From contig JAWOFX010000075.1 in the NCBI GenBank assembly GCA_046497275.1, positions 1-32,000 of the forward strand: a DNA stretch of 32,000 bases. Reading direction: 5' to 3'. This DNA comes from Promethearchaeia archaeon. Lineage in GTDB: Archaea > Asgardarchaeota > Lokiarchaeia > Sigyniarchaeales > SOKP01. The position numbers were made by a program, and so were the translations under genes. The number at the start of each line of letters is the position of its first letter. The stretch's first letter is position 1. Under the pieces are notes generated by a model that ran no database searches, was not told the origin of the DNA, and saw only the letters and a list, made by a program, of their open reading frames with translations. This document shows positions 12,471 through 19,442 of the stretch, piece after piece.

Positions 12471-12675
12471 ATAAAGAAATTTAAGCTTAAATTTATTATT
12501 ATAACGTGAAAGAAATTCAAAAATAATATAATAAAATATAAATTCTTTATATATACTAAATTTAATTTTATGTAAAAATATAAAAAACTTTAATTTATTC
12601 TTACATATATTAAATAAATAATTAAATACGTATTATTCTATTAATTATTATAATCGAAATTGAAAAAGTGATAAT

Positions 12676-13238
12676 ATGTCAAGTTTCAAATTAAAGGTCC
12701 TACTAACTGGAGCTGCCGCGGTTGGAAAAACCAGTCTAGTCCAGAGATTTATCAAAAATAGATTCCAGCAGAATTATAAACTCACAGTTGGTGTTGACAT
12801 CTTAACTAAGGATGTAGAATTTAAGCCGGGTGAAATCGCTACATTATCCATTTGGGATATTGGCGGGCAATCTTAGAAAATTTATTCTAAGACCCAAGAC
12901 AACGTTTCGAATTCATCCGGAGCACCTTCTATAAAGGAGCGGCAGGAGCTCTATTAGTATTCGACCTAACGCGAGAACAAACGTATACAGAAACAAGGAA
13001 ATGGTTAACTGAAATCAGACAATTTGCTGGAGAGAATATTCCATTTATACTAATTGGTAATAAAGCAGATTTATTAGAAGACGTCGGCAGAGTAATTGAC
13101 CAAGATGAAGCGAGAAATTTTGCGGAAAATGAAGGAAGTATTTATATTGAAACCTCCGCAAAGACAGGAGATAATGTTGAGGATTCATTTACAGAATTAA
13201 CTCGCCGTATAATTGAATCAAGAACTCAAGGGCAATAA
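12676..13238 (+). CDS. Rab-like small GTPase, 177 aa, split: join(12676..12869,12899..13238)
   Basis: Exon 1 (in the ORF track): G1 GAAAVGKT, TVGVD, LSIWDIGGQ. A different frame from 12900 (not in the ORF track; it contains no ATG/GTG/TTG) reads QRFEFIRSTFYKGAAGALLVFDLT...GNKAD...ETSAKTG...GQ*, covering RabF3-F5, G4 and G5. Removing 29 nt joins them as WDIGGQQRFEF. Confidence 0.92.
12870..12898 (+). other. Putative tRNA-type (relaxed bulge-helix-bulge/BHL) intron, 29 nt, in the Rab-like mRNA
   Basis: Pre-mRNA reads CGGG CA^A UCUUAGAA AAUUUA UUCUAAGA CCCA AG^A CAAC. It has a perfect 8-bp intron stem and a central helix GGG/CCC plus a C.A mismatch. The two 3-nt bulges are CAA and AGA. An exon-exon helix 12850-12862/12900-12912 pairs at 12 of 13 positions. 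Cutting after nt 2 of each bulge excises exactly 29 nt and restores the frame. Confidence 0.75.
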
Positions 13239-13456: not shown

Positions 13457-15193
13457 ATGGATAAACAAAGAATTCTAAAAGAAGCTCAACAATTGGCATC
13501 AAAATATTCTTTTTGGATGGTTTCTGGCGATATTTCACATTTATATGGATATATTTATGAAACCCCCGATAAAAAATTTGAATTAGAGATAAAGTTTCCC
13601 GAACAATTCCCTCAAAAACCTCCCCACATAATATCTGATGATGACATTAAAAGTTATTTAGGAGAGCCTAATCTTAAAGGAATTTTACAATGGAGACCTG
13701 AGAATAATGTTTTGAATATTGTTGATGAATTATATGAAATGCTTCTAAATAAACTAGAACCTTCAAAATCTCAAGAAAAAGATATGATACAATCTCCCGA
13801 ACACCAAGATCTCTCAATAAGTAAACCTGAGGAAATCAATATTTCCTCAACACCGGATATTGATGAAACTGAAGAATATATAACACCAGATTTAAACCAA
13901 TATCCTCCGGATGATTTTATAGAACCAGAAGCTTTTACTCCTTCGGGAGATGAATTATTTTATGATGAGTCACCTATTTCACCCTCACCATCCCACGAAC
14001 CAACACAAGATCAAGATGAATATATCATTCCAGAAAATGCAGTCACTTCACCTGAAGAGCTTTTTATTTCTCCTGATTCTACAAGTCTGGCAAATAAAAC
14101 AGAATTAGCACTTCTCCAACAAGAATATGCATATGACCAAAAAACGGGAAACCCTGCCAATGTAGTTGTATATCTTACAATTACTTTAACCAGAACCTTT
14201 ATGATTAATATTGATTTCTCGAGCTATCCTGAGAAACCAACAATTTCTTTTCCAGATGAAGTTACCGCGTTAATTGGAAATCCCTACAATTCGTTGGAAT
14301 CTTTAAAAAATTGGAATAGTAAAAATCCTCCTCATATAATTGATATTTTCCATGAACTAGAGAAGAAATTATTTACACTTAAAGATATTGAAGAGCAATT
14401 GCGTAAAATCTCACAAGAATTTCAAATAGAGTCCGATTCGAGAAGTTTAACTATGATAAAAGTACATCTTCTCACCTATGGATTTGATGAATATGTCATT
14501 GATGTGGATTTAGAACCTTATCCTAATCCCCCAAAGATTGACATTTCTTCGGAATTAAAAGATATGATCGATAAACCTATTGAAGAATTTAATTCTATAC
14601 AGATATGGACTAATAATCAATCAGAACCTATTGAAGTGATAAGAGAATTATCGTGGTTAGTGGATAAATATTCTCGAATCAATTTTGAATTAGAATTACT
14701 CAAAGTTAATTATCAAAACGTTTCATATGATTCCACAGTAGATACTCTTAGGGTTGATATGAAAGGAAAAATGAAAACAGAGGATATAACATTTGAATTT
14801 AAAATTCAATTACCAAGAGATTATCCCATGAGTATACCAAAAATCTCTGTGATTAATGAATTTGAGTTAGAAACACATGAAAAAATTAGAGAAGATTTAC
14901 ATCACTCATTTGAAGACTTTTTCGATGAATGGACTCCTTATAATTATCTTGTTGATTTATTTAACTTAATTTCGAAAAAAATATTCGAAGTTTCAGTTAT
15001 TGCATGTGTAATATGTCACGATATTGAATGCCCAACTTGTTCTTTAAAGATTGCTGGCGAGGGAGAAACTTGTCATGTTGCTTGTCCATACTGTGATAGA
15101 GTTTATCATAAACATTGTTGGGATCAAACTATAAAATCTTTTGGGAAATGCGGTTTTTGTTTAAAAGTTCCTCCCCCCAATATGATGCCCTAA
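13457..15193 (+). CDS. Four UEV/RWD (E2-like, no catalytic Cys) domains plus a C-terminal C4HC3-type RING/Zn finger; putative E3 ligase
   Basis: RILKE...FELEIKFPEQFPQKPP...WRP gives an E2-fold signature without HPN or Cys. Three further YPxxP modules follow (SSYPEKP, EPYPNPP, RDYPMSIP) after an acidic Pro-rich linker. C-terminus is CVICH..CPTC...C...CPYC...YHKHCW...GKCGFC. Confidence 0.75.
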   Translation: MDKQRILKEAQQLASKYSFWMVSGDISHLYGYIYETPDKKFELEIKFPEQFPQKPPHIISDDDIKSYLGEPNLKGILQWRPENNVLNIVDELYEMLLNKLEPSKSQEKDMIQSPEHQDLSISKPEEINISSTPDIDETEEYITPDLNQYPPDDFIEPEAFTPSGDELFYDESPISPSPSHEPTQDQDEYIIPENAVTSPEELFISPDSTSLANKTELALLQQEYAYDQKTGNPANVVVYLTITLTRTFMINIDFSSYPEKPTISFPDEVTALIGNPYNSLESLKNWNSKNPPHIIDIFHELEKKLFTLKDIEEQLRKISQEFQIESDSRSLTMIKVHLLTYGFDEYVIDVDLEPYPNPPKIDISSELKDMIDKPIEEFNSIQIWTNNQSEPIEVIRELSWLVDKYSRINFELELLKVNYQNVSYDSTVDTLRVDMKGKMKTEDITFEFKIQLPRDYPMSIPKISVINEFELETHEKIREDLHHSFEDFFDEWTPYNYLVDLFNLISKKIFEVSVIACVICHDIECPTCSLKIAGEGETCHVACPYCDRVYHKHCWDQTIKSFGKCGFCLKVPPPNMMP

Positions 15194-17565: not shown

Positions 17566-17712
17566 ACTCGAATTATCATTTCTAGTCATCTGACTATTAG
17601 AATCTTCTTTTCAAAAAGAAACTTAAATATAAAAATTTAATTTCGTTTACTGATTTTATAATTCAAATTAAATCCTATCATTTAATAACTTCTCATAAGT
17701 TATGTGGTTATA

Positions 17713-18957
17713 ATGAAATGTGCATTAGTAGACGGTGCTCTTGGTCATACAGGTTCTTTCTTAGTGAGAGAATTAGTAAAGCAAGGATGGAAAGTAATTG
17801 CTACTGATTTACAAAAACATACTCGAGATAAAGTAATGACAAAAGAATTTTTATTTGGTGTTAAGAAGGAATTCCTAGATTGTAGAAAATTGGAAAATGT
17901 AACTTATATCTCTTCAGACCTTACTAAAAAGCATACGTTAGAAAAATTATTTTCAGAGGATTTATTTGAGAGGGATAAAAAGAATTATGATGTTGTCTTT
18001 CACCCTGCTTCTTTATATGATTATGGGGCCTCTTATGAATTATTACATGAAGTTAATTATAATGGACTTTACAATTTATTAGACGTTATGTTTGACTATA
18101 GCGGAAAACTAAACATCAAACCTCCCAAATTTATCCATTGGTCCACATGCGGTGTATATGGAGAACCAATGTATCAAAAGGATAAAAAGGGATATATTTA
18201 CCCAGCTGATGAAACCGCTCCCTATGATCCTCCAAATAATTACTCTCAAACCAAGGTGGAACAAGAACATTTATTGTTTGAATTAGCTGAAAATAATAAA
18301 GATTTTAAATATGTAATATTAAGATCCGCTCCAATATATGGGTCTTATCAGACTTACGGGATGTTTCATATCTTTTATACAATATATATAATGGGCCATT
18401 CCACATTAGCTAAAATTTTTCCCAAAAAAAAGAAATTAATGATGCCTATGATTCATGTAAAAGACTTGGTAAGAGCAGCAATATTTTTGTCTCAAAAAGA
18501 AGAAGCTGTTTGTGAAATATTTAATGTTATTAACGATTCTCCACTCCAAGAACACTTTTTAGAATTCGTATATAATGAATTAGGCATTACTTTCTCAGTA
18601 ATCCCAATGCCATGGTTTTTTTTTAAACTCTTGAGTAAATTTATCTATTTCTTGGCTAAGAGGAAAGAAAAGAAGGCAAATCAATTGGGAATCCGACCAA
18701 AATTCGATCTTCCTATGGTAGAATATTTAACCCATCAATATTATTTTTCTAATAAAAAATTAAAAGATTTAGGATTCAATTTTCAATATAATGATTTTAG
18801 AAAAGGTGTGTTCGAGACCATAATGTGGTATAAAAAGCATGGATGGATTCCATATATGCGAGAAAAATTACCCGATTATGTTAATACAGAACCTAAACCA
18901 ACTCAATCATCAAAAATAAGATATAAGACCCCAATGGAGGGAGGTGAGATTTTTTAA
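17713..18957 (+). CDS. Extended SDR (NAD-dependent epimerase/3-beta-HSD-like)
   Basis: GALGHTG (GxxGxxG), VFHPA, HWST.GVYG, YSQTK (YxxxK), ILRSAPIYG and IHVKDLV. ATG 17713 is preferred over GTG 17704. Confidence 0.85.
   Translation: MKCALVDGALGHTGSFLVRELVKQGWKVIATDLQKHTRDKVMTKEFLFGVKKEFLDCRKLENVTYISSDLTKKHTLEKLFSEDLFERDKKNYDVVFHPASLYDYGASYELLHEVNYNGLYNLLDVMFDYSGKLNIKPPKFIHWSTCGVYGEPMYQKDKKGYIYPADETAPYDPPNNYSQTKVEQEHLLFELAENNKDFKYVILRSAPIYGSYQTYGMFHIFYTIYIMGHSTLAKIFPKKKKLMMPMIHVKDLVRAAIFLSQKEEAVCEIFNVINDSPLQEHFLEFVYNELGITFSVIPMPWFFFKLLSKFIYFLAKRKEKKANQLGIRPKFDLPMVEYLTHQYYFSNKKLKDLGFNFQYNDFRKGVFETIMWYKKHGWIPYMREKLPDYVNTEPKPTQSSKIRYKTPMEGGEIF
18940..18947 (+). promoter_or_regulatory. Shine-Dalgarno GGAGGTGA for the coupled downstream gene
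   Basis: Full GGAGGTGA lies 9 nt upstream of ATG 18957, which overlaps the upstream stop (TAATG). Confidence 0.65.
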
Positions 18958-19442
18958 TGGGTTTTGCTTCTAGTCTCATAATTCTTTCCGTATTAGGATT
19001 GTTTTCACATTATTTTTATCGAAGATTTGGTATAGCAAAAGGAAAATTAGCGTGGATTTCCTATTTTACCCTTTTTGTAAATTTAGGATTTTTAATCTTA
19101 GATATTTTAATTTATGCTGGGTTTTTTAATTTTTTATTTCCGATCTTTAACAATCTTCCTTGGGTCTTTATTGAAAATGGAAAAGATTTTATGTGGAATT
19201 CATTTCAATTGATTGGGGTAAACTGGTCAATCCCTTATAATACTGCTTCTTTAAACACTATAGCAATATTCTTATTCATTTCTTATCCTATATGGTTTAT
19301 GTTTTTTAAAGATTTTTCAAGGAAGATTTTTGGAGGGAATGAAAAGCGTCCCTACACAAAAGGAATCAGCTTTTTATTTACTTATCCTAAAAAAACCGAG
19401 GATGAGACAGATTTTGCTAAAAAACCAGAATTAGGCGATTAA
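18957..19442 (+). CDS. Small membrane protein (about 3 TM) translationally coupled to the SDR
   Basis: TAATG overlap, its own SD, and hydrophobic segments flanking GKDFMWNS and YPIW motifs. Confidence 0.75.
   Translation: MGFASSLIILSVLGLFSHYFYRRFGIAKGKLAWISYFTLFVNLGFLILDILIYAGFFNFLFPIFNNLPWVFIENGKDFMWNSFQLIGVNWSIPYNTASLNTIAIFLFISYPIWFMFFKDFSRKIFGGNEKRPYTKGISFLFTYPKKTEDETDFAKKPELGD

Follow-up and report, generated by a model that had tools for sequence, protein, structure and literature searches.

How can a small GTPase gene whose reading frame breaks inside switch II yield a full-length protein? This question is raised by a Ras/Rab-like gene on the forward strand of a 32,000-nucleotide (nt) stretch of DNA, hereafter the window, from a Promethearchaeia archaeon of the Asgardarchaeota (NCBI GenBank assembly GCA_046497275.1, contig JAWOFX010000075.1, positions 1 to 32,000). 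Within an assembly of 3.85 Mb, with a G+C content of 30% and a completeness of 98.9%, the window is contig 45. We find that the 29 nt that interrupt the gene in DNA are exactly absent from an RNA contig and that this segment, positions 12870-12898, is very probably a tRNA-type bulge-helix-bulge (BHB) mini-intron that is spliced out of the messenger RNA of a Rab-like small GTPase.

A Rab-like GTPase gene interrupted in switch II

The first open reading frame (ORF) of the gene, 12676-12876, begins MSSFKLKVLLTGAAAVGKTS and runs for 66 amino acids to WDIGGQS and a stop codon. The downstream part of the GTPase (RFEFIRSTFYKGA...NKAD...SAK) lies in a +2-shifted frame that is open from 12891 to a TAA at 13236-13238. 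At the break, the CAA codon of Gln65 (12868-12870) is followed by UCU and then by UAG. An earlier note on this DNA, made from the letters alone, had read the unspliced CAA UCU UAG as giving a 66-residue fragment without the G4 and G5 motifs and with the rest of the protein out of frame, and this reading is borne out. The Pfam Ras profile matches exon 1 with its positions 1-58 and the downstream part with its positions 59-161. Since positions 58 and 59 abut at the junction, the join must read GGQ/QRF (here and below a slash marks a join or cut) and the interruption must have a length of 3n+2. Translation of the joined product gives 177 amino acids with an intact DIGGQ switch II. The gene is laid out as follows, with the evidence for each feature in brackets.

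12676-13238, + strand: interrupted Ras/Rab-like GTPase gene (ORF, translation and Pfam Ras)
12676-12869, + strand: exon 1, from Met1 through bases 1 and 2 of the Gln65 codon, with the P-loop, switch I and the DIGG of G3 (ORF, Pfam Ras and comparison with the same-genus ortholog L002)
12870-12898, + strand: probable 29-nt intron, equivalently 12871-12899 (absent from L002 and from the RNA contig of run X6, present in the DNA contig of run X1)
12874-12876, + strand: in-frame UAG, at which the unspliced frame ends after 66 amino acids (sequence)
12899-13238, + strand: exon 2, from the third base of the Gln65 codon through Gln66-Gln177 to TAA, with switch II, the G4 motif NKAD and the G5 motif SAK (translation and Pfam Ras)

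The closest comparison is provided by L002, a same-genus ortholog that is uninterrupted across the site (GGCCAGCAACGT, GGQQRF). Its protein is 100% identical to the window protein over exon 1 and 94% identical over exon 2, and the DNA alignment contains many synonymous differences. Relative to L002, the window carries 29 extra nt. The earlier note had placed the insert at 12868-12902; the 3n+2 length stands, but the 35 nt do not, since that span takes in the codons of Gln65 and Gln66. Base 12870 equals base 12899, and the insert can hence be written in two equivalent registers that give the same product.

The joined protein is a Ras-superfamily G domain whose best solved relatives are Rab14, Rab4, Rab25, Rab11, Rab1 and a Thorarchaeota Rab. 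An assignment to Rab, as made previously, thus holds insofar as Rab proteins are the closest relatives and the motifs G1-G5 are present. It fails at the C-terminus (...RRIIESRTQGQ), which, unlike that of a canonical Rab, lacks a prenylation cysteine motif, and we therefore name the protein Rab-like. An ortholog search found no second ortholog of the gene in the host genome. About 30 Ras-like paralogs are encoded there, all of them uninterrupted; being at most about 45% identical to the GTPase, they are uninformative about the junction.

The adjacent gene (13457-15193, + strand) encodes a protein of 578 amino acids that combines UBC-like and RWD domains with a Cys-rich C-terminus. L002 shares both neighbours, a methyltransferase gene upstream and the E2/RWD protein gene downstream, so that the GTPase gene and a ubiquitin-system gene are kept paired in the same-genus relative. 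Synteny was confirmed for L002 only; the other ortholog loci share no neighbours within the flanking DNA compared.

The insert is absent from an RNA contig

At least part of the stretch is contained in 20 public runs from 10 studies, 11 of which are on record as RNA, and four runs were aligned to the window. In a metatranscriptome (run X6), one 365-nt contig with a depth of 29.6 spans 12573-12966 and lacks exactly 29 letters at 12870; over its 365 nt it is otherwise identical to the window. Independent DNA assemblies contain the insert (run X1 and loci L054 and L056), and every DNA contig of the window sequence retains it. A spliced message thus exists, with the insert in the DNA and exactly absent from the RNA contig. 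The proposal that a full-length GTPase requires removal of the insert is upheld by this spliced form, together with the immediate stop and the lack of a second ortholog.

The X6 contig also documents transcription upstream of the start codon.

12573-12675, + strand: minimum extent of the transcribed leader that precedes the start codon (the X6 RNA contig starts here and runs mismatch-free into the gene)

This AT-rich leader measures at least 103 nt in the spliced RNA contig, and the GTPase message is accordingly not leaderless.

The insert and its flanks are predicted to fold as a relaxed bulge-helix-bulge motif

We computed a minimum-energy fold for positions 12850-12925 and compared it with shuffled sequences, which gave a z-score of -2.1 for the local fold. 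The elements of the predicted structure, all on the + strand, are listed here.

12871-12892, + strand: intron hairpin (helix h'), an 8-base-pair stem of 12871-78 with 12885-92 and a loop at 12879-84 (fold; paired changes in homologous introns)
12864-12867, + strand: 5' strand of the central helix H, CGGG; G12865-67 pair with C12893-95, and C12864 is mismatched with A12896 (fold and BHB scan)
12893-12896, + strand: 3' strand of the central helix H, CCCA, intronic (fold, BHB scan and relatives)
12868-12870, + strand: 5' bulge CA/A, which is the Gln65 codon; predicted cut after A12869 (unpaired in the fold; RNA gap at 12870)
12897-12899, + strand: 3' bulge AG/A; predicted cut after G12898, with A12899 completing Gln65 (unpaired in the fold; RNA and orthologs)

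On the 3' strand, AAGA (12896-99) is unpaired in the minimum-energy fold. The position of the C12864/A12896 mismatch pairs in relatives, as U-A in genome G012 and as G-U in a metagenome contig. Cutting after the second base of each bulge, at 12869/12870 and 12898/12899, would remove exactly the 29 nt by which the window exceeds L002. When the 575-nt gene was scanned blindly for BHB motifs, the junction that restores the ORF scored highest of 275 candidates. A ranking of BHB motifs by energy, over intron lengths of 15-100, was dominated by long spurious folds and was set aside. The modelled motif is of the relaxed HBh' type. A 5' cut inside the Gln65 CAA codon of switch II, as had been predicted, is thus a point on which the fold, the comparison with L002 and the X6 RNA contig agree.

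The geometry of the removed segment also bears on how the X6 contig is to be read. Reverse transcriptase can skip stable hairpins, and the contig could in principle reflect such a skip, a skip in assembly over the hairpin, or a co-occurring strain that is free of the insert. Intron-less alleles do exist in related species, and a single RNA contig bridges the site. A skip, however, would delete the stem-loop of 22 nt or run between direct repeats, whereas what is missing is the stem-loop plus 6-7 nt on its 3' side, just 1 nt is repeated at the insert borders, and the removal is as the BHB rule predicts. As for another strain, the X6 contig matches the window perfectly outside the gap, whereas intron-less L002 has many synonymous differences, and the DNA contigs of the window sequence all keep the insert. 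We consequently regard an artefactual or foreign origin of the RNA contig as very unlikely.

We also considered whether the insert belongs to a family of repeats or mobile elements and rejected this: the 29-mer and a 41-nt core are unique in the genome allowing up to 6 substitutions, and the 22-nt hairpin is unique allowing up to 2.

Inserts at four sites in one GTPase family

An order-wide search identified 116 genomes with an ortholog, all of one family. Orthologs from the same family are 74-93% identical to the GTPase. The gene is interrupted in 7 of the 116 ortholog-bearing genomes (the host, G000, included), leaving about 94% without an insert, and a metagenome contig provides an eighth case. 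The eight inserts occupy four sites, all in the region coding for switch I and switch II and within 100 nt of one another.

Site A, Gln65 codon: G000 29 nt, G017 29 nt, G012 30 nt, metagenome contig 31 nt
Site B, after Asp61: G010 30 nt, G015 30 nt
Site C, Lys35 codon: G135 31 nt
Site D, Asp41 codon: G128 30 nt

Each of the eight has a hairpin, a four-position helix to the exon and 3-nt bulges, and in all eight interrupted genes cuts placed behind the second base of each bulge bring back the conserved protein. All four positions of the central helix pair in G015, G128, G135, G012 and the metagenome contig, and the G015 insert comes close to a canonical hBHBh' motif. Inserts of 30 nt preserve the frame but contain stops, and those of 29 and 31 nt shift it. 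Removal at the RNA level accounts for all eight inserts; frameshifting and readthrough each fail for some.

A rival reading is that the ribosome hops over the insert in a programmed translational bypass, with no cutting of the RNA. The hairpin, the stop shortly after CAA and a further CAA at 12900-12902 are in keeping with such a hop. Landing on that second CAA, though, would give GGQRF, one residue short of every ortholog; the site-B inserts lack matched take-off and landing codons; and RNA without the 29 nt exists. The chance that bypass explains the gene seems to us close to negligible.

We next consider constraint. An alignment of the four site-A introns has 84.6% of its cells paired and 4 pairs in which both sides have changed, whereas control slides by 1-3 columns yield no two-sided pair changes except two at +2. 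The site-A introns diverge by 17-41%, compared with 39-57% for third codon positions. Nonsynonymous divergence (dN) among the interrupted genes is 0.03-0.09 against saturated synonymous divergence (dS), which argues that these genes are under purifying selection. By their patterns of substitution, both the GTPase genes and the site-A introns are thus under constraint.

These values speak to the suggestion that the insert is never removed and that this small palindromic insertion has turned the gene into a pseudogene. The reading frame is indeed interrupted, and the palindrome is nearly perfect. Yet dN/dS is about 0.03-0.05 between interrupted copies, the exon 1 protein is identical to that of L002 despite many synonymous changes, and the insert is unique in a genome that has no other ortholog and for which insert-free RNA exists. 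A pseudogene is extremely hard to reconcile with these data, and we give it very little credence. A different locus from the same genus, L048 (G005:C40:4900-6500), carries a second GTPase copy that lacks the first ~50 codons and is preceded by unrelated sequence; this copy is probably a truncated pseudogene.

The carriers of inserts are scattered over the gene tree, which implies several losses, or transfers, or both. Two of the inserts resemble each other across sites. The Lys35 intron (L047, G135:C24, gene nt 104) and the Asp41 intron (L046, G128:C9, gene nt 121) come from two species of one genus, lie 17 nt apart and are 75% identical (24/32). Their common core, ATTAGGA-N4-CTCCTAWTCGG, has no other occurrence in 135 genomes, and their 3' ends differ, each pairing with its own exon. 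From the sequences, the two introns look like one hairpin that was relocated inside the gene.

The host encodes an (alpha-beta)2 endonuclease and RtcB

BHB introns are cut by the tRNA-splicing endonuclease EndA, whose subunit type the earlier note had singled out for checking. The host genome encodes two EndA paralogs of 201 and 200 amino acids, on contigs 46 and 168, respectively. The former matches the catalytic half of two-domain endonucleases; the latter matches the structural half and, weakly, the beta-subunit model. These matches make the host enzyme one of the (alpha-beta)2 kind, as Asgard archaea have been reported to possess (PMC5829648). The best alignment of the catalytic subunit is to the alpha subunit of Aeropyrum pernix and is gap-free through the Crenarchaea-specific loop, of which the host subunit retains the Lys and Arg (SKPR as compared with EKPR, matching K44 and R46). 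In the Aeropyrum enzyme, these loop residues confer a broad substrate range (PMC3241643). The sequence thus gives no indication of an EndA that is restricted to strict motifs, a property that, according to the earlier note, would count against its interpretation. Two genes for the ligase RtcB are encoded as well.

A side observation concerns the tRNA genes of the host. ARAGORN predicts just 19, several of them dubious, despite the 98.9% completeness of the genome. This low count fits the heavy, non-canonical interruption that has been reported for Asgard tRNA genes, in which many non-canonical introns are found (PMC11291895; bioRxiv 10.64898/2026.10.13.758758; PMC5829648).

A proposed splicing pathway

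We propose the following pathway for the GTPase message. The 8-base-pair intron hairpin would form helix h' in the transcript, and GGG (12865-67) would pair with CCC (12893-95) as the central helix H. The Gln65 codon CAA on one strand and AGA on the other would remain unpaired, each as a 3-nt bulge. The (alpha-beta)2 EndA would cleave both bulges behind their second base, at A12869/A12870 and G12898/A12899, and RtcB would join the exons, so that Gln65 is rebuilt from CA and A and the frame continues as QRFEF... to the end of the 177-amino-acid GTPase. A message translated before splicing would stop at the UAG after 66 amino acids. Two parts of this scheme are inferred: the choice between the two equivalent registers for the cuts, and the view that the intron is removed routinely and not under regulation.

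Several points weigh against this account. The motif is relaxed: its central helix consists of three G-C pairs and a C/A mismatch, and its outer exon helix h is either a single G-C pair or a UUG/CAA helix displaced by a 2x4 loop. Two simple BHB scores place the true junction first in 4 and 3, respectively, of the eight interrupted genes. The RNA support consists of one assembled contig from one study. A second study offers RNA (run X13) with an unspliced contig only (233 nt, 12671-12903, depth 7.2), and a further RNA run, X5, is uninformative, with no contig bridging the site and contigs that stop at read ends with adapter sequence. The RNA data are assembled contigs, in which cut ends, cyclic phosphates and a circular intron are not visible; such contigs yield no ratio of spliced to unspliced message and cannot exclude DNA carry-over. 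The unspliced form in X13 is thus either precursor or DNA carry-over. Finally, the proposed action of EndA and RtcB on the insert is deduced from the presence of their genes. Even with these points counted, we hold the mini-intron that is spliced out of the GTPase message to be the highly probable explanation of 12870-12898.

Other mini-introns in the host genome

The earlier note had further expected similar mini-introns in other genes of this genome that look split or frameshifted, and this expectation is borne out. Our genome scan combined BHB geometry with the merging of ORFs, for which the null ratio of frame-compatible to frame-incompatible candidates is 1:2. A loose genome-wide scan returned this null ratio (7293:14645). 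An excess was seen only in the class with a length of 28-33 nt and a stem of at least 7 base pairs, where the counts were 50:50. The insert in the RNA polymerase A' gene was confirmed, and four more were found.

RNA polymerase A' (RpoA'), 30 nt: G000:C83:1644-1673 (L050), join GHFGH/IELA; Pfam Rpb1_1 positions 2-73 and 74-272 flank the insert
cdhA, 31 nt: G000 C46:5373-5403, join ICD/MCCLCTFGKC
DeoC-type aldolase, 30 nt: G000 C98:30530-30559
ABC ATPase, 32 nt: G000 C59:8285-8316, join DEPT/TGVD
AMP phosphorylase, 31 nt: G000 C171:12136-12166, join KHS/TGG

Most of the inserts in cdhA and in the aldolase, ABC ATPase and AMP phosphorylase genes have an A-rich 3' bulge (AA/A), and in several of these four genes the exon side of the central helix is formed by Gly codons or by other codons rich in G. 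One further candidate in the window, 18943-18971, was rejected as a chance match: an epimerase gene (17704-18957) there meets an ORF that starts with its own ATG (18957-19442), and the stem is mostly G-U.

Routine processing or a regulatory switch

The earlier note had suggested a splicing-controlled on/off switch. On such a reading, production of the GTPase would depend on splicing that is conditional and rate-limiting, such that EndA and RtcB set the level of the protein and the system forms an archaeal counterpart of HAC1/XBP1. This possibility draws on the architecture of the insert: the product is all-or-none, with a stop two codons past the cut and a length of 3n+2, and an in-frame stop is present in all eight introns of the GTPase family. 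An early stop occurs, more widely, in all 13 mini-introns that we examined, including 7 of 7 frame-shifting ones, for which shuffles give about 0.5 each; some of the 13 are interrelated, and it was their stops that led to the in-frame ones. In addition, one RNA study has only the spliced form (X6) and another only the unspliced form (X13).

A number of observations argue in the other direction. The intron is missing from the syntenic same-genus gene L002 and from most ortholog-bearing genomes, its carriers are scattered in the gene tree, and the position of the insert varies among them. Introns of this type also sit in RpoA' and in central metabolic genes; they are thus a genome-wide feature and no device peculiar to the GTPase gene, and their presence in essential housekeeping genes argues for routine processing. 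The contrast between the X6 and X13 runs loses force insofar as the X13 contig may be pre-mRNA or DNA carry-over. We found no match to Ribonuc_2-5A, the IRE1-type domain, in the host genome, a result of little weight since no control genome matched either. With an intron that most orthologs lack, a variable position and a device shared with housekeeping genes, a dedicated switch is not indicated. A regulatory on/off function for this intron therefore looks unlikely, and we think conditional, rate-limiting splicing improbable, whereas routine removal of the mini-intron remains our preferred account.

Relation to known systems

A tRNA-type intron in a protein-coding archaeal message has a precedent in the BHB intron of cbf5 (pseudouridine synthase) pre-mRNA in the Crenarchaeota (Desulfurococcales and Sulfolobales; PMC2738675). 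Both cases involve patchy gains and losses and a presumed removal by EndA and a ligase. The introns described here differ in their phylum (Asgard, Lokiarchaeia-type), in their Rab-like GTPase host gene and in their size of only 29-31 nt. They also differ from the single case of cbf5 in occupying four alternative sites within 100 nt of one gene, and the intron in the window is one of many such introns in the host genome. Our literature search found archaeal mRNA introns spliced by endonuclease to be documented only for crenarchaeal cbf5; the Asgard intron papers that it returned treat tRNA genes only, and none that it returned concerns Asgard mRNA introns.

With the BHB introns of archaeal tRNA and rRNA, the GTPase intron shares 3-nt bulges, a four-position central helix, a cut after the second bulge base and a putative (alpha-beta)2 EndA that has the L1/CSL loop and tolerates relaxed motifs. 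Its host, unlike theirs, is an mRNA, so that the exon half of the motif consists of the codons GGC GGG CAA and a failure to splice gives a truncated protein and not a defective tRNA.

HAC1 and XBP1 provide a eukaryotic parallel, in that each has a short non-spliceosomal mRNA intron whose removal alters the frame and a tRNA-type ligase (RtcB in animals, and proposed here) joins the exons. In those messages, however, the cuts lie in twin 7-nt loops with an IRE1 consensus, whereas here they fall in the 3-nt bulges of a BHB motif, and evidence of stress control is absent here. A likeness of another kind exists with T4 gene 60 and with the byp elements of Magnusiomyces mitochondria, where an otherwise intact gene also carries a hairpin insert of about 30-50 nt and a nearby stop. 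In those systems the insert stays in the mRNA and is skipped by the ribosome, whereas the RNA here lacks it. The mechanism is thus already known; novelty lies in the host gene, in the lineage, in the small size of the introns and in the presence of several sites in one gene.

Implications for Asgard genes

The apparently relocated hairpin at Lys35 and Asp41 and the occurrence of similar inserts across the host genome raise a broader idea, namely that BHB mini-introns are a mobile population colonising the protein genes of this Asgard lineage, in which a hairpin moves and becomes spliceable anew at each new site. We offer this tentatively and consider it possible but doubtful. If true, the archaea most closely related to eukaryotes would have an endonuclease-based route to mRNA intron gain, and the efficiency of splicing could tune single genes such as the Rab-like GTPase. 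A Rab switch, if shown, would matter greatly.

More immediately, the locus presents tRNA-type splicing of an mRNA on a eukaryote-signature gene in an Asgard archaeon, with the exact junction supported by RNA. Gene callers will call such genes truncated or frameshifted, and inventories of Asgard proteins consequently undercount intact genes. The production of many proteins would depend on tRNA-splicing enzymes. The patchy, multi-site pattern in the GTPase family, finally, may serve as a tractable system for the gain and loss of introns in protein genes without a spliceosome.

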